Assembly: GCA_964436545.1 (NCBI GenBank)
Contig: CAYTCJ010000001.1
Location: forward strand, 78,392 to 142,391
Direction of reading: 5' to 3'
Source: an uncultured Candidatus Saccharibacteria bacterium
GTDB taxonomy: Bacteria > Patescibacteriota > Doudnabacteria > UBA920
DNA length: 64,000 nucleotides
The first letter of the stretch is position 1; each line of letters begins with the position of its first letter. Of this stretch, positions 2,466 through 34,714 are shown piece by piece. A program made the translations under genes and the position numbers. The notes beneath the pieces were generated by a model. It was not told where the DNA came from. It ran no database searches and saw only the letters and a program-made list of their open reading frames with translations.

Positions 2466-3001
2466 AAAAAATTATTTTACAATCAAAATTGTATAAGTCT
2501 AACAGTGGTTTTACTCTCATAGAACTCCTTGTAGTTATTGCCATTATTGGTCTGTTGGCCAGTGTGGTGCTTGTAAGTTTAAATTCCACTCGAAAAAAAG
2601 CCAGAGATGTTAAACGATTGGCGGATATTAATCAAATCCAAAAAGCTCTGGCGCTCTATTACGATGCCAATGGTCAGTACCCAGCGCCTACGAGTGATGC
2701 CAGCTGTGGTGGATACGATACCACGGCTGACGGAACATTTTTATCGGTTTTAAGAACCGCCGGTTATTTAAGTAAAGATGTTTTAGATCCATCGATTAAT
2801 AGCAGTTGCCAGAATTATAAATATTATAGATATTCAGCGGGTGATAGCGGATGCGATGCCAATAAAGGCGCTTTTTATGTAATTGGAGTGGTGGATATGG
2901 AAACCAGTAGTGGCGCACATCCCGACAATCCTGGATTTTCCTGCACCGGGAGAAATTGGACAGGTGAATTTGAATGGGTAACCGGACAGTATGAAAAATA
3001 A
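2444..3001 (+). CDS. Type IV pilin-like protein (paralog 4); likely real start at TTG near 2495
   Basis: SNSG|[20 protein letters not shown] motif; C-terminal domain has several Cys. Confidence 0.65.
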   Translation: MFMRPLLKKIILQSKLYKSNSGFTLIELLVVIAIIGLLASVVLVSLNSTRKKARDVKRLADINQIQKALALYYDANGQYPAPTSDASCGGYDTTADGTFLSVLRTAGYLSKDVLDPSINSSCQNYKYYRYSAGDSGCDANKGAFYVIGVVDMETSSGAHPDNPGFSCTGRNWTGEFEWVTGQYEK

Positions 3002-3067
3002 ATTTTTATAATTATTTGAATACTTTATTTATTTTAAGCTTTAGTGTTAAAGCTTCACGATTAATGT

Positions 3068-4087
3068 ATGTTGGATATTATTTCTATCGGCGACGCCACC
3101 ATTGATACATTTTTGTTTATTGATGATTTGGAAATTAAAAAAATTAATGGCCAAACCAAGGCGATTTTTAATTGGGGAGATAAATTACCGGTAAAAGAAC
3201 TTTATAAAACTGTGGCGGGTAATGCCGCCAATAACGCGGTGGGGAGTGCTCGGTTGGGTTTAAAGACCGCTTATTATACCGTCTTGGCGCACGATGTCGG
3301 CGGGAGAGAAATTATTCACAAAATGAAAAAGGAAGGCGTATCGGAGCGTTATATTGTAATCGATGAAAAACACAGCACTAATGCATCGTTTGTCATTTCT
3401 CATAAAGGCGAGAGAACTATTTTGGTTTATCACCAACATAGAAAGTATAAACTACCGCCTTTAGTTCCATCGAGATGGGTATATTTAACCAGTATGGGTG
3501 AGGGGTTTGAGTCTATTTATCCCGAGTTGTGCCAGTATATAGACAGATATCAGAGTAATTTGGGTTTTAATCCCGGCACGTTTATGCTCAGAGCGGGAGT
3601 TAAGGTGAACAAAGAAATTTTAAAGCGAACTACGTTGTTATCTGTTAATGTGGAAGAAGCGCAAAGTTGGGTGGGGGAGAATAATCGAGATCCGGAAATG
3701 CTGTGTAAAAAATTGTTCAATCTAGGCCCGAAAATTATTGCCCTTACCGATGGCCGAAGAGGGGCTTATTCCTATAGCGAGCAAGGGTTTTATTATGTAC
3801 CGGAATATCCCGGACCCAGAATAGAAGCCACGGGTGCGGGTGATGGTTTTACTACCGCTTATATTGCCGGGTTATTCTATGGGTTGCCACATGCTCAAGC
3901 ACTTAAGTGGGGTCCGGTAAATGCGGGAAGTGTGGTGCAAAAAATTGGACCGCAAGCCGGTTTACTAACCAAACAGGAAATTGCATTACAATTAAAAAAA
4001 TTAAAAAAATTTGAAACCATCAACATTACCGATGCCAAGAGTAAAAAACAGGTAATGGCTATGGTGGCAAAAAAGAAAGATACATAA
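3068..4087 (+). CDS. PfkB-family carbohydrate kinase (ribokinase/phosphofructokinase-like)
   Basis: PfkB signature GAGDGFTTAYIAGL near the C-terminus; N-terminal GDATIDTF; sits in a glycolytic gene cluster. Confidence 0.7.
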   Translation: MLDIISIGDATIDTFLFIDDLEIKKINGQTKAIFNWGDKLPVKELYKTVAGNAANNAVGSARLGLKTAYYTVLAHDVGGREIIHKMKKEGVSERYIVIDEKHSTNASFVISHKGERTILVYHQHRKYKLPPLVPSRWVYLTSMGEGFESIYPELCQYIDRYQSNLGFNPGTFMLRAGVKVNKEILKRTTLLSVNVEEAQSWVGENNRDPEMLCKKLFNLGPKIIALTDGRRGAYSYSEQGFYYVPEYPGPRIEATGAGDGFTTAYIAGLFYGLPHAQALKWGPVNAGSVVQKIGPQAGLLTKQEIALQLKKLKKFETINITDAKSKKQVMAMVAKKKDT

Positions 4088-4090
4088 TTT

Positions 4091-4306
4091 ATGAGTAACT
4101 TAGCAGGGAATAGCGTAGCTTCCCAAAACCCGATTTTTCGATTTTGCTTAATTGCCTTTTTAGGGAGTGTGGGTTTGGGCTTGGTATTGAGTTGGCGAGC
4201 TACCAGTTTTATTACTTCGGAATATCAAGAAATTCCTCAATCCGCCCGAATGGTAAAAATTAAAAATATGAATAAGTTAACTCAAGAAAATTTAAAAGAC
4301 AAATAA
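4091..4306 (+). CDS. Small hypothetical membrane protein
   Basis: 71-aa ORF with one hydrophobic segment filling the gap between the PfkB kinase gene and gap; no recognisable family. Confidence 0.25.
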   Translation: MSNLAGNSVASQNPIFRFCLIAFLGSVGLGLVLSWRATSFITSEYQEIPQSARMVKIKNMNKLTQENLKDK

Positions 4307-4313
4307 TTTTTAT

Positions 4314-5339
4314 ATGGCACAACACATTAAAATTGGAATCAATGGGTTTGGAAGAATTGGCAGGCAGGCGTTTAAAATCGCTCTCGGTAAGCCGGAAATT
4401 GAAGTGGTGGGGATAAACGATTTGTCACCCACTTCGGTTTTGGCGCATTTGCTGAAATACGATAGTAATTACGGCCGGTTTGGTTTGGAAGTGAGTTTTG
4501 ACGAAACAAATTTAATTGTAGCGGGTAAAAAATATCCGGTAGTTGCAGAAAAAGAACCGGAAAAATTACCTTGGGGCAAACTGGGGGTAGACGTAGTTTT
4601 AGAATGTACTGGCCGGTTTACAGATAGTGAAAAAGCAGGAGCTCATTTGAAGGCTGGGGCAAAAAAAGTGATTATCTCCGCTCCGGCAAAAGACGAAGGT
4701 GTAACCCCCACCATTGTTTTAGGGGTGAATCACGACAAATACAAAGGCGAAAATATCATTAGCAATGCTTCTTGCACGACCAATTGCATTGCGCCGGTTT
4801 TAGATGTGCTAAATAAAAAATTCGGTGTGGAAAAAGCTTTTATGTCCACTATTCATAGTTATACCGCGGAACAGAATTTGGTAGATGGTCCGCCACCCGG
4901 AGGCAAATCCAATGACTTAAGAAGAGCTCGGGCGGCTGCCATCAACATTATTCCCACTACGACTGGCGCTGCCATTTCCGCCACCGAAGCCATTCCATCG
5001 CTCAAGGGCAAATTTGATGGTGTGGCGTTTAGAGTCCCAACGCCTGTTGGTTCATTATCGGATTTTACAGTTTTACTTAAAACTAATGTTACTAAAGAGC
5101 AGGTGAACCAGGCCTTTATTGAGGCTTCGAAAAATTCCCATTATCAAGGATACTTGGAAGTTTCTACGGAACCTTTGGTGCTTAGCGATATTGTGGGCGA
5201 CCCGGCCTCTTCGATTGTAGATTTGTCTTTAACTCAAGTGGTAGATGGCAATTTTATAAAAGTGGTGGCTTGGTATGACAACGAGTTTGGCTATAGTAAT
5301 CGGTTGGTAGAGGAAGTAATTTTAATACAGCGACACTAA
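4314..5339 (+). CDS. gap: Glyceraldehyde-3-phosphate dehydrogenase (type I)
   Basis: IGINGFGRIGR NAD-binding motif and the active-site SNASCTTNCIAP segment. Confidence 0.95.
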   Translation: MAQHIKIGINGFGRIGRQAFKIALGKPEIEVVGINDLSPTSVLAHLLKYDSNYGRFGLEVSFDETNLIVAGKKYPVVAEKEPEKLPWGKLGVDVVLECTGRFTDSEKAGAHLKAGAKKVIISAPAKDEGVTPTIVLGVNHDKYKGENIISNASCTTNCIAPVLDVLNKKFGVEKAFMSTIHSYTAEQNLVDGPPPGGKSNDLRRARAAAINIIPTTTGAAISATEAIPSLKGKFDGVAFRVPTPVGSLSDFTVLLKTNVTKEQVNQAFIEASKNSHYQGYLEVSTEPLVLSDIVGDPASSIVDLSLTQVVDGNFIKVVAWYDNEFGYSNRLVEEVILIQRH

Positions 5340-5357
5340 TATGCCAATAGCACGCTA

Positions 5358-5735
5358 ATGACGCTAATAATAGAACCACAATTATCCTTTAAGATTACAG
5401 GGTTGTGTTTTAAGGTTCATAATAAACTTGGCAGATTTGCAAGCGAAAGACAATATTGTGATGAATTAGAAAAGTTGTTCATAGAAACCGGATTGAGTTA
5501 TGAAAGAGAATGTGATATTAAAACCTTAGTCCCAGATTCCCCAAAAGGTAATAGAGTAGATTTTTTAATTGAAAAGCGAATACTGTTAGACGCAAAGGCT
5601 AAAAAGTTTGTGACCAAAGAAGACTATTTACAAATGATTCGTTATTTAGAGGCATCAAAACTGAAACTCGGATTAATTGTAAATTTTAGAAATACTTATA
5701 TTAAACCGAAGCGTGTAATTAATAGTAAAATTTAA
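5358..5735 (+). CDS. GxxExxY family protein (PD-(D/E)xK nuclease-like small protein)
   Basis: 125 aa with the typical C-terminal YLQMIRYLEASKLKLGLIVNF pattern and central DFLIEKRILLDAKA of the GxxExxY / TIGR04256-like family. Confidence 0.6.
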   Translation: MTLIIEPQLSFKITGLCFKVHNKLGRFASERQYCDELEKLFIETGLSYERECDIKTLVPDSPKGNRVDFLIEKRILLDAKAKKFVTKEDYLQMIRYLEASKLKLGLIVNFRNTYIKPKRVINSKI

Positions 5736-31730: not shown

Positions 31731-31815
31731 TGGGGGTGTCGCTCCGACCGTCGCTTTAAGCTATGGCGGACAGGCAAGTGGTAAGGCATCCCGATGGAAT
31801 CGGGACATACCGTAC
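31731..31815 (+). pseudogene. Degenerate tRNA-like fragment (5' part resembles the downstream tRNA-Gln, with a 31-nt insertion; no T-arm or acceptor 3' strand)
   Basis: TGGGGGTGTCGC...GCAAGTGGTAAGGCA aligns to tRNA-Gln; anticodon-like stem TCCCG/CGGGA; no TTCGAAT T-loop. Confidence 0.4.
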
Positions 31816-31865
31816 TGGAGTTTATTTAATCAGCATGATCTTTAATATATTTTTTTAAAAATGAT

Positions 31866-31940
31866 TGGGGTGTCGCCAAGTGGTAAGGCAGCGCCCTTTG
31901 GAGGCGCCATCCGTAGGTTCGAATCCTACCACCCCAGCCA
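31866..31940 (+). tRNA. tRNA-Gln (anticodon UUG)
   Basis: Manual fold: acceptor UGGGGUG/CACCCCA (U1:A72), D-stem GCC/GGC, anticodon stem GCGCC/GGCGC, loop CUUUGGA, T-loop TTCGAAT, encoded CCA. Confidence 0.85.
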
Positions 31941-32161
31941 TTTTTAAAAAAATAGATGTTTACAATCTATTTTAAAAGCTTGTAGTCACTTTTTGTTTTG
32001 GAATAATTTCAATATCAAAATTTATAATTTTAAAAAGCGGAGCATTTATTACAAGGCTTCGAATTTTTATTTGAAAATTTTTATTAGTAGATTACATGGC
32101 GGAGTAATTTGTTATATGGCAATTTGGAATAATCCATAATGGAATACTATCATATAAGTAT

Positions 32162-32383
32162 ATGCCGAGAGCAATTTATCAAGATGAGCATAAAAATATC
32201 GTTGAGCGTTTGAAAAAAGCGCGTTTTGAAGCCGGTATGGGGCAAATTGAAGTAGCAAAAAAACTTGGAAGAACTCAGTCTTATATTTCTAAAATTGAAT
32301 CAGGTCAAAGACGATTTGATATTTTGCAACTCAAAGAGTTTGCAAAACTTTATAAAAAAACCCTAGATTACTTTGTAAAATAA
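32162..32383 (+). CDS. HTH XRE-family transcriptional regulator; candidate restriction-modification controller (C) protein
   Basis: 73-aa Cro/C1-type HTH (QIEVAKKLGRTQSYISKIESGQ); stop overlaps the start of the next gene (TAATATG). Confidence 0.65.
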   Translation: MPRAIYQDEHKNIVERLKKARFEAGMGQIEVAKKLGRTQSYISKIESGQRRFDILQLKEFAKLYKKTLDYFVK

Positions 32384-32384
32384 T

Positions 32385-32957
32385 ATGCAAATTTTAGAAC
32401 ATAAAGCAAAAGTGTTTGGTTTGGAATGTAAGCTTGAGCTTTTGCATTTTGATAAAAATGATAGTAAGGAATGGAAGAGGATTTTTGACATTTGGAAAGA
32501 GCTTAAATTAGGGTTAAGAAAATATAAGTCTAGAGAACCTAATATGCCAGAAGGATTATCAGAAGTAGCTTTTTGTCTTTGGTCTGGCTCGGCTCGGTAC
32601 GTAAAACTTAAAGGCTCTAAAAAAGGAATTGCAGGCTCATTTGATACATTTGATTTAAAAAATAATAAAGCTCAACAGATAAAGGCTTGTAGTATTGAGT
32701 TTGATTTAACTTCGTTTGGACCAAAATCAAAATGGGATGATTTATATTTTATAGATTTTTATAATGACGGAAAAGTAGACGGTAAGTTTGATGTATATTT
32801 AATCTCAAATAAATACATTAAGAATCAATCACTCAACAAAAATGAGTTTTTTACCGATCAACAGAAACAAAAGAGAAGACCGCGTTTTGGAATTAAAAAA
32901 GAGATTATTCAAAAATATAGAATTAAGCCTTTGGCAACAAAAGTAAAAGTTTGGTAA
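32385..32957 (+). CDS. Putative type II restriction endonuclease (no family recognised by eye)
   Basis: 190 aa, translationally coupled to the C-protein gene; stop abuts the stop of the convergent C5-methyltransferase gene. Confidence 0.4.
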   Translation: MQILEHKAKVFGLECKLELLHFDKNDSKEWKRIFDIWKELKLGLRKYKSREPNMPEGLSEVAFCLWSGSARYVKLKGSKKGIAGSFDTFDLKNNKAQQIKACSIEFDLTSFGPKSKWDDLYFIDFYNDGKVDGKFDVYLISNKYIKNQSLNKNEFFTDQQKQKRRPRFGIKKEIIQKYRIKPLATKVKVW

Positions 32958-34535
32958 TTAATCCAGTGCTTTCATTATTTGTTTTGCCAAAGCTTCGATG
33001 ACTGGAACACTCACAGAATTTCCTGCTTGTTTATATAAGGCAGAATCTGAAATTTTTGGCAGAACATAATCTTTCGGAAAACCTTGAATTCTAAAACATT
33101 CCAAAGGGGTTAATTTTCGAATCCCTTTTTTATCAATAATTATTGGAACATTATGTCCGCCCATTCCCATATTTGCAGTTAATGTTGGGCAAACACCACT
33201 TTTGTTTTCTCTTACATACTGCCTGCGCCATTGGTAGACTTTACCTTCCTCTTTTACATAATTTTTTAGCTTTTCAAATAATGGTTTGTTATTATAATAA
33301 TATTTTACTGGGACATCTTTCTCTAGTAAATCAGTAATTTTAGTATTTAATCTAACTGGACTAGGAAATTCAAATTTGTCTGAATAAATCTTATTTTTAA
33401 AACCTACAATATATATCCTTTCTCGATTTTGAGGGATATTTCCATATTCCATAGTGTTTAAAACCTTAATTTTTATATAGTAGCCTAAGCTTTGTAATGT
33501 CTCCCCAATAATTTTAAATGTTTTGCCTCCGTCATGACTCTTTAAGTTTTTTACATTTTCCAAAAGAAAACCTGCTGGTTTTCTAGCTTCTAAAATTCTT
33601 GCAATATCAAAAAATAAGTTCCCTCTTCCTTTTTCATCATTAAATCCTTGCCTATAACCTGCAATAGAAAAAGCCTGACAAGGAAAACCACCTAACAGAA
33701 AATCAAATTTTGGTAAATCATCAATTCCAATTTTTCTGATATCTTCAATAACTAGTTTTGTATCTTTAAAATTTAGATCATAAGTATCCTTGCATTGTGG
33801 TTCAAAATCATTTGCGAAAACAGTTTTAAATCCGGCATTTTCAAAACCGAGTCTAATTCCTCCCACTCCAGCAAATAAATCAATTGTTTTAAAATCAAAA
33901 TTGGTTTTTTTCGTTTCTATTTCCCCTGATGTATTATTTGGATTACTAATGACTTGAATGACAACGCCTCTGACTTCAACATCAGCTCGAAATAATGTAG
34001 GCATGTTTGGATTTCTTGGTTCTAAATTAAAGCCCTTTCCTTTTCTGTAAAGTTTTTTTAGTGTAGCTTGATTATCGTCGATAATAGCAACAACTGTTTG
34101 GCCATTTTCAGCCACTGATTGATGTTTAATTATTACAACATCACCATCAAAAATTCCATCGTTAATCATAGAATTTCCTACGACTCGGAGTGCGTAATAA
34201 CCCTCCGATGTTTTTATTTGGGGGTTAATTACCGATATGGATCCATTGCGTTCTTCAATTGCCGGTAGGGGATAGCCCGCTCTAATATTGCCAATTATTG
34301 GGATTTCAATTATTGATTTTATTTGTTTTTTTAGTGTTAAACTTCTTGCAGAATTTTGGGATTTGGCAAGATAACCTTTAATTTTTAACGAATTAATATG
34401 TTCGTGGATAGTGGAAACTGCTTTAAGTCTTAATTTTTTTCGTATTTCTTCAATTGTTGGCGAAATACCGTTTTCAGCGATGTAGGTATTTATAAAATCA
34501 AAGACTTGTTTTTGTTTTTTAGTAAGGGATAGCAT
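32958..34535 (-). CDS. Fusion protein: LexA-like repressor (wHTH plus S24 autopeptidase) fused to a DNA (cytosine-5)-methyltransferase
   Basis: N-terminal 200 aa collinear with E. coli LexA (LTKKQKQVFDFI..., cleavage site AG in IRAGYP, GNSM Ser, ATLKKL Lys); C-terminal FKTIDLFAGVGG (motif I), GGFPCQAFSIAG (motif IV) and ENV (motif VI) of C5-MTases. Confidence 0.8.
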   Translation of the reverse strand: MLSLTKKQKQVFDFINTYIAENGISPTIEEIRKKLRLKAVSTIHEHINSLKIKGYLAKSQNSARSLTLKKQIKSIIEIPIIGNIRAGYPLPAIEERNGSISVINPQIKTSEGYYALRVVGNSMINDGIFDGDVVIIKHQSVAENGQTVVAIIDDNQATLKKLYRKGKGFNLEPRNPNMPTLFRADVEVRGVVIQVISNPNNTSGEIETKKTNFDFKTIDLFAGVGGIRLGFENAGFKTVFANDFEPQCKDTYDLNFKDTKLVIEDIRKIGIDDLPKFDFLLGGFPCQAFSIAGYRQGFNDEKGRGNLFFDIARILEARKPAGFLLENVKNLKSHDGGKTFKIIGETLQSLGYYIKIKVLNTMEYGNIPQNRERIYIVGFKNKIYSDKFEFPSPVRLNTKITDLLEKDVPVKYYYNNKPLFEKLKNYVKEEGKVYQWRRQYVRENKSGVCPTLTANMGMGGHNVPIIIDKKGIRKLTPLECFRIQGFPKDYVLPKISDSALYKQAGNSVSVPVIEALAKQIMKALD

Positions 34536-34714
34536 TTTAATTAAATTAGTAATTATTTAACTATATTAATAATAACCGAATAAAAGCCGAAAAGCAAAGC
34601 AAGTTGTCCACAAAGTTTTTTTAATACAGGAGAATATTGTAATAATCTAAAGAATATAATAAACTAGAAATACTTACTCAAATGGCTAAGTTGTAAATAA
34701 TTTAATATTTTCTT

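Follow-up and report, generated by a model that had tools for sequence, protein, structure and literature searches.

The window, i.e. the whole stretch of 64,000 nucleotides that was analysed, contains a compact set of three genes beside an intact tRNA-Gln(UUG) (Table 1). A 525-aa open reading frame, in which LexA is joined to a C5 cytosine methylase, is convergent to the genes for a 73-aa helix-turn-helix protein of the Cro/C1 type and a 190-aa putative endonuclease. The helix-turn-helix gene (C) is the first gene of a C-R operon, the nuclease gene (R) starts 1 nt after its stop codon, and the end of the nuclease gene is flush against the stop codon of the methylase. An earlier note on this DNA had described this arrangement of the reading frames together with the adjoining tRNA, a degenerate tRNA-Gln-like fragment upstream of it and a block of lower GC content, and all of these features were recovered. 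ARAGORN and Rfam agree on the intact tRNA, the 3′ end of which faces the module. The fragment, for which neither program returned a call, matches tRNA positions 1–50 in a local alignment; its D arm contains a 32-nt insertion, its T arm is missing, and it is not part of the conserved module. The 14-nt sequence CAAGTGGTAAGGCA is repeated exactly, at 31775 in the fragment and at 31877 in the intact tRNA. Over positions 31800–34700 the GC content is 0.28–0.34, compared with about 0.40 in the flanks.

Table 1. Features of the tRNA-Gln-adjacent module; positions refer to the window, residues (aa) to the 525-aa fusion protein.
Feature	Position	Strand	Evidence or remark
Degenerate tRNA-Gln-like fragment	31732..31814	+	Local alignment to the intact tRNA
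Intact tRNA-Gln(UUG)	31866..31940	+	ARAGORN; Rfam tRNA, 64.4 bits
C-box/promoter block	32112..32161	+	TTATATGGCAATTTGGAATA-N8-TGGAATACTATCATATAAGTAT, upstream of the C gene
Candidate C (controller) gene, 73 aa	32162..32383	+	Pfam HTH_3, 1.9e-11
Putative Bsp6I-family Type II endonuclease gene, 190 aa	32385..32957	+	RE_Bsp6I, 6.5e-13; PADLOC REase_II, 4.7e-25
Fusion gene, 525 aa	32958-34535	-	One ORF; LexA (wHTH and S24) and C5 cytosine methylase
C5 cytosine methylase domain, aa 215-522	32970..33893	-	DNA_methylase (PF00145), 8.4e-92, model 1-324/324
Linker between S24 and methylase, aa 194-214	33894..33956	-	Least conserved stretch
S24 autopeptidase/dimerisation domain, aa 79-193	33957..34301	-	Peptidase_S24 (PF00717), 5.1e-27, model 1-116/116
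Predicted catalytic Lys160	34056-34058	-	
Predicted catalytic Ser122	34170-34172	-	
Predicted cleavage site Ala86-Gly87	34275-34280	-	
LexA winged-helix DNA-binding domain, aa 1-64	34344..34535	-	LexA_DNA_bind (PF01726), 2.5e-15, model 1-64/65
Promoter/operator of the fusion gene	34569..34612	-	Elements read on the - strand
-10 element	34569-34574	-	TATTAT
Predicted SOS box	34576-34591	-	TTCGGCTTTTATTCGG; fills the 17-nt -35/-10 spacer
-35 element	34592-34597	-	TTGCTT
DnaA-box-like element	34603-34612	-	TGTGGACAAC

In the earlier note the amino-terminal ~200 residues of the fusion had been read as a full LexA with its Ala-Gly site, Ser and Lys, and the remainder as a complete C5 methylase. Both readings hold, as LexA_DNA_bind, Peptidase_S24 and DNA_methylase are matched at full or near-full model length within one polypeptide. 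Moreover, residues 1–198 align with positions 1–201 of the 203-position lexA model TIGR00498 at 172.1 bits, the curated equivalog cut-off being 110.95 bits, and the dcm model TIGR00675 is matched at 4e-102. By sequence match to PDB entries, residues 2–197 align to E. coli LexA structures and residues 214–523 to M.HhaI (7.8e-60). On sequence criteria, these full-model HMM and PDB matches settle the domain identities. Ala86, Gly87, Ser122 and Lys160 are invariant in 81 out of 81 fusion sequences, in which positions 85, 88 and 121 are free to vary, and the four residues are also kept in all other classes of LexA fusions (see below). The LexA part is apparently self-cleaving. The methylase motifs FxGxG (221–225), PCQ (285–287) and ENV (326–328) are likewise invariant in all 81 sequences, and the target-recognition region (about aa 395–480) shows a conservation of 0.92–0.98. 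Within the linker (aa 196–210) conservation drops to 0.52, versus 0.8–0.98 elsewhere in the fusion.

A relative of the fusion is encoded in 376 GTDB species representatives, and proteins of about 525 aa with all three domains form more than 120 distinct clusters at 90% identity in sequences from JGI, ENA, NCBI and Logan. It could be argued that an assembly error or a frameshift joined lexA to a neighbouring methylase gene, since unfused lexA-methylase neighbours exist (L096) and one N4/N6 example is split (L088). However, the reading frame is continuous without a stop, and the same 525-aa architecture recurs in four independent sources. This recurrence, in the clusters as well as in the species representatives, rules out an artefact, the chance of which we regard as negligible. 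A viral origin was also considered and rejected: seven IMG/VR matches carry the methylase alone or LexA alone, but never the fusion. As to the nearest C5 methylases, their other amino-terminal extensions are a Bsp6I nuclease, RadC or unannotated, and none is LexA. The literature that could be searched yielded no description of a LexA::methylase architecture. The novel look that the earlier note ascribed to the design stands, but the locus is not a one-off: it belongs to a large, horizontally spread family of Patescibacteria and to one of several LexA::methylase classes. The LexA::methylase fusion is a widespread, undescribed design.

LexA is found fused to methylases of at least four families, i.e. 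C5, N4/N6, Dam-like and Eco57I-type enzymes. The fusion classes are only 45–55% identical to one another, and their common layout is LexA::M -> <- R <- C. In addition, an unfused operon of lexA followed by a methylase gene occurs at L096. The function common to fused and unfused forms would be a LexA-controlled expression of the methylase; the recurrence of the fusion with at least four methylase families argues for a strong selective value.

Each of the related fusion loci is located in a different genomic context, and the fusions remain 68–86% identical across distant classes. A tRNA (Glu, Ser or Gln) that matches this one in side and relative orientation is found within about 2 kb of the module in at least 15 out of 60 related loci, and the intact tRNA-Gln(UUG) is likely an integration landmark. 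Whereas related loci have a large serine recombinase beside a tRNA, the ORF list of 31941–34714 contains no recombinase, and no att-type direct repeat of the tRNA 3′ end was detected at the far border of the island. The copy in the window therefore looks non-autonomous. When the 90-aa protein in the flank was looked up by exact match in search of an empty site, only the same arrangement was returned.

The 190-aa protein, which had been proposed as an endonuclease, matches RE_Bsp6I at 49 bits (cut-off 25) over model positions 11–171 of 179, and this match together with the PADLOC hit supports its assignment as a putative Type II nuclease. A Bsp6I-family nuclease abuts the fusion in 27 out of 75 loci. 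Elsewhere, seven other nuclease families take this place, i.e. one conserved methylase serves eight unrelated nucleases. Single-chain relatives in which Bsp6I is fused to a C5 methylase also exist. From these family relations the target is expected to be GCNGC. This site is strongly depleted in the window (41 observed versus 172.6 expected, O/E 0.24), with the lowest ratio among the 16 palindromes of the type XYNY'X', is absent from the island, and is also depleted in the host flanks of related loci. Since GCWGC and GCSGC are both depleted in most nuclease groups, site avoidance does not resolve the nuclease classes.

The earlier proposal that the 73-aa protein is a C-protein candidate gained support from its HTH_3 match and from a conserved C-box upstream, the PADLOC Control_protein match being weak (8e-5). 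The C-box block has TGGAATA repeats at 32125 and 32140, and a promoter scan revealed a promoter-like TTGGAA-18-TATCAT at 32124–32153. Among the loci compared, cross-locus conservation starts sharply some 50 bp ahead of the C start codon wherever a C gene is present (25 of 25), and the same conserved block is found upstream in a Dam-type system (L091). The C protein is 63% identical to that of an unrelated Dam-type LexA::methylase system. As only 27 out of 80 related loci carry a C gene, it is optional in the family.

The operator of the fusion gene is a direct repeat, TTCGG-N6-TTCGG, within the promoter spacer. It is the only perfect copy in the 64-kb window. The box occupies the same promoter position in 78 of 80 related loci, and of the 74 perfect copies in the 803 kb searched every one is located at a fusion promoter. 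The same arrangement of box and -10 element precedes stand-alone lexA genes of Patescibacteria (L089/L090, L087), the box also stands ahead of a DinB gene (L130), and 26 of 83 matches in a metagenome scan precede LexA-type genes. Because it is shared with stand-alone lexA and dinB, TTCGG-N6-TTCGG appears to be the SOS box of the lineage. This rules out a private operator unique to the restriction-modification (R-M) module; the module is plugged into the SOS network of its host and has no switch of its own. When about 1 Mb of Patescibacteria DNA was searched for further promoters with an SOS box, only two matches with one mismatch were obtained, which we judge to be due to chance because both are inside coding sequence. 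The -10 and -35 elements in the window fall short of the family consensus in strength, and a generic sigma-70 scan, which called no more sites than in shuffled sequences, did not call the fusion promoter.

The recognition helix of the winged-helix domain (STIHEHI in the window) co-varies with the operator half-site. Helices of the type ST[IV]H[EQ]H pair with TTCGG in the window, in P0207, in L087 and in 19 scan matches with a readable helix, while STAH[FY][HY] pairs with TTCTA or TTCGA. For P0213 we predicted a TTCTA box in advance, and it was then found. We know of no earlier description of the TTCGG half-site. The analysis thus provides a candidate SOS box for an uncultured lineage with a TTCTA variant, a natural helix/operator specificity pair, and a candidate for a compact, self-contained damage-inducible expression cassette.

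The locus is best explained as a compact, horizontally mobile Type II R-M set beside tRNA-Gln, the methylase gene of which would be autorepressed and then derepressed by RecA-stimulated self-cleavage of its product. We assign a probability of about 0.6 to this model as a whole. According to the model, the LexA part would dimerise via S24 and bind TTCGG-N6-TTCGG in the spacer of its own promoter. As the fusion would thereby occupy its own promoter, the methylase concentration would set its own synthesis, which would be the same autorepression logic as in M.SsoII and M.Ecl18kI. RecA filaments on single-stranded DNA, which could form after DNA damage, during repair synthesis, on phage DNA or upon self-restriction where sites are under-methylated, may then stimulate cleavage at Ala86-Gly87. 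The DNA-binding domain would be lost, the promoter derepressed and the methylase output would rise, provided that the S24-methylase product stays functional. The net effect would be a feedback against self-restriction, which would give a Type II system its own form of restriction alleviation. Cross-regulation between host LexA and the fusion is probable, since the box is the SOS box of the host lineage. Host LexA on this box could also repress the methylase when the module enters another cell, an apparent risk for its establishment there. As host LexA acting on an SOS box would suffice to make a methylase SOS-inducible, the model does not fully explain the fusion itself.

The direction of the effect would be reversed if the S24-methylase fragment were unstable. 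Cleaved LexA fragments are protease substrates in E. coli and are degraded there. Cleavage might then destabilise or inactivate the methylase, and a stable nuclease would cut newly replicated, unmethylated DNA and kill the damaged or infected cell. The strict conservation of cleavage site and catalytic dyad is compatible with such a damage-triggered suicide. Furthermore, the amino-terminal fragment would end in ...IAA in most members (position 85 is Ala in 59 of 81), and the nuclease gene lacks an SOS box, so that only the methylase would respond. On the other hand, promoter derepression accompanies cleavage in any case, and in the unfused operon L096 cleavage can only raise methylase expression. 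The genome is also strongly depleted in the target site of the module, which suggests a long, tolerated residence. We consider suicide unlikely. We hold it to be just as improbable that the LexA part is only a dimeric DNA-binding module that keeps the methylase level constant, with cleavage playing no physiological role. Repressors that are part of a methylase but have no protease are well documented (PMC2760811, PMC3978073), the spacer of the promoter is taken up by the box, and S24 is also the dimerisation domain of LexA. Yet a domain retained for dimerisation alone would be expected to lose the Ala-Gly site, Ser and Lys, which are invariant across the fusions and their classes while flanking residues drift.

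Slightly less probable still is that the module has captured the master regulator by taking over or duplicating host LexA, the fusion being (also) the SOS repressor of the cell, with host SOS genes under a methylase-linked repressor that is costly to lose. Its operator is the general SOS box of the lineage, no second lexA was found in the 64-kb window, and the NCBI annotation labels the fusion proteins simply as LexA. Against this speak the mobility and patchy occurrence of the module, the frequent occurrence in the same lineage of stand-alone lexA genes that share helix and box with the fusion, and the lack of any other box in about 1 Mb of flanking DNA. Apart from these alternatives, autorepression relieved by self-cleavage, our preferred model, may be part of a broader picture, to which we give even odds: LexA::methylases would be a general, portable SOS-sensing R-M switch in Patescibacteria, in which cleavage resets the methylase/nuclease balance after damage, be it as restriction alleviation or as suicide, and the mobile module may also read and rewrite the SOS regulon of the host.

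R-M systems are a main anti-phage defence of the CRISPR-poor Patescibacteria. To our knowledge, it is poorly understood how Type II systems protect their own chromosome from cutting after DNA damage. Through the LexA::methylase design, DNA methylation is probably coupled to the DNA-damage alarm, and a methylase fused to an SOS sensor would, if this is true, provide a direct and testable link from the DNA-damage response to epigenetic self-marking.

Among known systems, M.SsoII, M.Ecl18kI and M.EcoRII come close, as these C5 methylases also carry their own amino-terminal DNA-binding domain and autoregulate at the methylase promoter by blocking RNA polymerase (PMC2760811, PMC3978073, PMC12707154); in Ecl18kI it is the methylase-borne repressor that blocks its own promoter (PMC2760811). 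However, their amino-terminal HTH comprises about 70 aa and no protease, whereas a complete 200-aa LexA with an S24 Ser-Lys peptidase is present here. SsoII-type R and M genes are divergent and share one operator, whereas here the genes are convergent, an SOS box takes the place of that operator, and a C protein is encoded separately. To judge from its sequence, the fusion would work like the SsoII-type regulatory methylases, but it is not a member of that group. With LexA it shares the full-length TIGR00498 match above the equivalog cut-off, the Ala-Gly site, the Ser/Lys dyad and an operator ahead of its own gene; it differs by its covalent linkage to a DNA methylase inside a mobile R-M module and by the TTCGG half-site. 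The box resembles the established one of Caulobacter, GTTCN7GTTC (PMC9578287): both are direct repeats that have TTC at the core and a register of 11 bp.

The R side is reminiscent of PvuII, Esp1396I and AhdI, in which a small co-oriented HTH gene with a repeated C-box ahead lies directly upstream of the nuclease. C-box control is expected to delay nuclease expression (PMC2175313). In contrast to those systems, C is optional and the methylase side comes with LexA, a second regulator that is independent of C. Similarity to R-M systems of the Bsp6I/Fnu4HI type (GCNGC) comprises the RE_Bsp6I nuclease, a methylase clade that is also fused to Bsp6I-type nucleases, and the depletion of GCNGC in the host; here, however, the same methylase pairs with the other nuclease families as well, and the specificity is predicted. 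Like CapH/CapP, CapW/BrxR and CapK/CapS, in which loss of a repressor couples immune genes to a DNA-damage or ssDNA signal (10.1101/2022.04.27.489752, PMC11662680, PMC13373217), the fusion would link defence to damage. Those regulators are separate proteins with other modes of sensing, whereas here LexA itself, fused to the effector, would control the protective methylase arm. Type I restriction alleviation after DNA damage proceeds through ClpXP proteolysis of HsdR or through assembly failure, whereas here the methylase would be induced at the level of transcription. In purpose the two would agree, namely in guarding unmodified chromosomal sites that arise during repair (PMC12707154).

The earlier note had described, downstream of an intact tRNA-Gln(UUG) and a degenerate upstream fragment, a lower-GC block with a 73-aa HTH protein, a 190-aa putative endonuclease and a convergent 525-aa ORF, which joins a LexA of about 200 aa, including its S24 part, to a C5 methylase in one polypeptide. 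All of these elements were recovered at their places (see table), and the GC content of 0.28-0.34 over about 31800-34700, a block containing three ORFs, contrasts with about 0.40 in both flanks. The tRNA-like fragment, called by neither ARAGORN nor Rfam, lies about 50 bp upstream of the intact tRNA-Gln. An inverted repeat brackets the latter and reaches about 20 nt past the acceptor stem, into A/T runs. Profiles place the 190-aa protein among the Bsp6I-family restriction endonucleases (Pfam 6.5e-13, 49 bits at a model cut-off of 25 bits; PADLOC REase_II 4.7e-25). A profile search of the 525-aa protein matched LexA_DNA_bind (residues 1-64), Peptidase_S24 (79-193) and DNA_methylase (215-522), each at full model length. 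On the LexA equivalog profile TIGR00498 (cut-off 111 bits), residues 1-198 score 172 bits, and sequence alignment covers solved LexA structures over residues 2-197 and M.HhaI over 214-523.

Features of the window and of related loci and contigs (L numbers)
Feature	Sequence	Position	Strand	Remarks
tRNA-Gln-like fragment	window	about 31732-31814		matches tRNA positions 1-50; 32-nt insertion; without T arm
Inverted repeat, 28 nt	window	31845-31872 / 31930-31957		89% complementary
tRNA-Gln(UUG), intact	window	31866-31940	+	ARAGORN and Rfam
HTH_3 protein, 73 aa	window	32162-32383	+	
Bsp6I-family protein, 190 aa	window	32385-32957	+	start 1 nt after stop of 73-aa gene
Fusion ORF, 525 aa	window	32958-34535	-	convergent; stop codon abuts 190-aa gene
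TTCGG-N6-TTCGG box	window	34576-34591	-	
TGTGGATAAC	window	34603-34612	-	directly upstream of -35
Promoter of DinB/Pol IV gene	L130	931-953	+	TTGACT - TTCGG-N6-TTCGG - GTATAAT, 6 nt, then ATG
Tandem box and -10 copies	L148	1096-1442	+	three copies
LexA::N4/N6 methylase	L088	113-1998		two overlapping ORFs (335 aa and 293 aa)
lexA-methylase operon	L096 (also L097, L098)	2501-5591		196-aa LexA, 2 nt, then gene of at least 839 aa with C5 and N6 methylase/Eco57I domains
Large serine recombinase	L042	6030-7583	+	order M-R-C-recombinase-tRNA-Ser; directly adjoins tRNA-Ser
Vsr endonuclease	L062	5503-5946	-	
Z1-domain gene, 735 aa	L220	2687-4894	-	divergent from fusion gene

The fusion is not an artefact of the junction. 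Among 5.8 billion proteins searched, more than 120 distinct clusters (90% identity) matched; they are 77-96% identical to the window protein, nearly all exactly 525-526 aa long, and contain the three domains without exception. They derive from JGI, ENA, NCBI and Logan assemblies, and their named members are labelled Parcubacteria or Patescibacteria. Scanning one genome per species, we found that 376 GTDB species encode a relative, so that the fusion, as the earlier note had asked, is indeed present in related genomes. The top 80 loci, at full length and 68-86% identity, stem from many Patescibacteria lineages, among them Nomura-, Giovannoni-, Moran-, Falkow-, Uhr-, Vogel-, Zambryskii- and Staskawicz-bacteria. 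Moreover, an independent short-read assembly reproduced exactly the first 101 residues of the fusion together with the neighbouring gene. Because of this recurrence and the independent assembly, a frameshift or chimeric assembly is excluded as its origin. At 50% identity the family reduces to one representative, and no fusion was found in the viral contigs of IMG/VR. The nearest other methylases either stand alone, at about 310-340 aa, or have a Bsp6I-type nuclease or RadC as fusion partner; P0350, P0333 and P0288, close relatives of the methylase domain, are such single-chain fusions.

In an alignment of the window protein with 80 relatives, the predicted cleavage site Ala86-Gly87 as well as Ser122 and Lys160 are invariant (81/81), whereas the adjoining positions 85, 88 and 121 vary freely, and conservation is lowest in the methylase linker (196-210). 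The LexA part of the fusion thus looks functional. The cleavage-site and Ser/Lys residues are also kept in all other fusion classes examined, in which an N-terminal LexA plus S24 is joined to C5 (two types), several N4/N6 (PF01555), Dam-like (PF02086) or Eco57I/N6_Mtase/TaqI_C methylases. They share the layout LexA::M -> <- R <- C, as exemplified by L091/L092, L093 and L094/L095, where R is the nuclease, of the MvaI/BcnI family in L093, and C the HTH controller. Between the Dam-like and the N4/N6 fusions the LexA modules are 60-72% identical, despite unrelated methylase parts. In the Dam-type system, C protein and C-box correspond to those of the window (63% identity), but the nuclease does not. 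One LexA::N4/N6 methylase (L088) is split; the copy is frameshifted or decaying, or else the assembly is wrong there.

Of the 80 loci, 78 carry TTCGG-N6-TTCGG ahead of the fusion gene, about 43 nt before the start codon, where it exactly fills the 17-18-nt spacer between the -35 (TTGnnT) and -10 (TATAAT) elements. The window has a single perfect box, the sole such copy in 64 kb, and all 74 perfect boxes in 803 kb of related loci are located at the fusion promoter. We initially read it as a private operator of the restriction-modification (R-M) module and dropped this reading, as the same box occurs at stand-alone lexA and dinB. The box and -10 arrangement precedes a stand-alone Patescibacteria lexA (L089/L090) and is found on a LexA-only viral contig (L087); in a metagenome scan for it, 26 of 83 matches precede LexA-type genes. 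On a groundwater contig (L130, 39% GC), a further match of the scan forms part of a textbook promoter, with possibly leaderless transcripts, of a DinB/Pol IV gene (Pfam IMS 1.8e-50). The dinB gene is a canonical SOS gene. Since the box precedes both stand-alone lexA and a DinB/Pol IV gene, TTCGG-N6-TTCGG is predicted to be this lineage's SOS box, which had not been defined before. Its direct repeat has a register of 11 bp and a TTC core, both as in the SOS box of Caulobacter, GTTCN7GTTC (PMC9578287). Three tandem box and -10 copies within a repeated ORF-like unit of a marine metagenome contig (L148) are probably unrelated repeat DNA.

No other computational result speaks as strongly for binding of the box by the LexA domain as the co-variation of recognition helix and half-site. 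TTCGG goes with STIHEH, and ST[IV]H[EQ]H occurs in 19/19 readable helices among the 26 LexA-type genes of the scan; in the other classes, TTCTA-N6-TTCTA or TTCGA-N6-TTCGA boxes accompany STAH[FY][HY]. For P0213, a 196-aa LexA with the helix STAHFH, a TTCTA box was predicted from the helix beforehand and then found. P0213 heads an operon of lexA and then a methylase gene, the fusion design in unfused form; in L096, where the methylase gene extends past the locus end, the operon is preceded by a HEPN_AbiU2 gene in a defence neighbourhood. A further sequence at these promoters, TGTGGATAAC, corresponds on the opposite strand to the DnaA-box consensus TTATCCACA. In the majority of fusion promoters, whatever their class, it directly precedes the -35. 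Within L001-L080, the best 80 loci, it lies some 20 nt ahead of the SOS box (perfect in 46/80, at most one mismatch in 61/80), and this near-perfect DnaA-box sequence also occurs in Dam-type, N4/N6 and operon-type promoters (L091, L093, L096). Cross-locus conservation starts exactly at this sequence, which may serve DnaA or an activator, or else mark the end of the mobile unit.

A convergent ORF abuts the methylase gene in 70 of the 75 loci with enough sequence. These ORFs sort into eight unrelated families, of which the Bsp6I-like one has 27 members; another has an NgoFVII C-terminal domain (PADLOC REase_II 1e-103), and a third is PD-(D/E)XK. Because the target-recognition region is nevertheless the most conserved part of the methylase (0.92-0.98), a single methylation specificity appears to serve interchangeable nucleases. 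To judge from site counts, this specificity is most likely GCNGC, with 41 sites in the window versus 173 expected (O/E 0.24, 4-mer Markov expectation), the lowest ratio among 16 comparable palindromes. The depletion covers all four middle bases, the island has no GCNGC site, and the host flanks of related loci are also depleted. CCNGG (0.62) and GTNAC (0.67) are likewise under-represented in the window, hinting at other R-M pressures, past or present.

The R-M unit is modular and mobile. The flanking genes of the window are common to none of the 80 related loci, and the DNA conserved between loci has sharp borders, one about 50 bp before the C gene and the other about 95 bp before the fusion gene. 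A tRNA gene (Glu, Ser, Gln) accompanies the module on its C/R side in at least 15 of 60 loci, at a distance of up to about 2 kb and with its 3' end toward the module. A large serine recombinase stands beside the C gene in 8 loci; 7 have a Vsr very-short-patch (mismatch) repair endonuclease shortly before the fusion gene. The window copy, in which neither a recombinase nor an att-like repeat was found, thus has the look of a non-autonomous remnant at a hot spot. The nearest relative (L220, fusion 96% identical) shares the PF1765-like/DUF2238/DUF1905 flank and has an additional Z1-domain gene beside the module; the site is a variable hot spot.

Directly established are the anatomy of the module, its recurrence, the conserved catalytic residues, and the position, identity and co-variation of the operator. 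We propose, with a probability of about 60%, an autorepressed fusion whose RecA-triggered self-cleavage induces the methylase. The protein would dimerize via S24 and repress its own promoter; RecA filaments would elicit self-cleavage at Ala86-Gly87, and the DNA-binding domain thus freed would allow derepressed methylase synthesis. Plausibly, unmodified sites arising in repair would be protected, and negative feedback would set in when the nuclease nicks under-methylated DNA. Restriction alleviation is established for Type I systems (PMC12707154), and the proposed induction would be its Type II analogue.

Damage-triggered suicide through loss of the methylase is unlikely: induction is favoured over inactivation as the shared function, because the unfused operon can answer cleavage only with more methylase. 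It is similarly improbable that the fusion is a pure autorepressor with a vestigial protease; the conservation pattern is as expected for selection on autoproteolysis itself, not merely on the fold. We also consider it rather doubtful that a master SOS regulator was captured or duplicated, although the 64-kb window contains no separate lexA besides the fusion. Methylase induction by self-cleavage is the reading that we prefer.

The earlier note did not recognize this architecture as a described one, and full-text literature searches for LexA together with Patescibacteria/CPR and a methyltransferase, as well as for the two Pfam domains combined, retrieved nothing relevant; a 2025 review of R-M biology nowhere mentions LexA or S24. 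Databases annotate the proteins just as "LexA" or "DNA (cytosine-5)-methyltransferase". The design is of interest as it is widespread, modular and directly testable. At the sequence level the module has all the hallmarks both of LexA and of Type II R-M systems under the control of a C protein. Defence operons under DNA-damage-responsive control are known (CapH/CapP, CapW, CapK/CapS), but their regulators are separate and their sensors differ from the LexA fusion. M.Ecl18kI and M.SsoII repress their own promoter through an N-terminal domain (PMC2760811, PMC3978073), which is unrelated to the LexA part of the fusion. The module would work like the SsoII/Ecl18kI/EcoRII dual-function methylase repressors, yet it is not a member of this group, as it adds a complete LexA, a convergent gene arrangement and a C protein.
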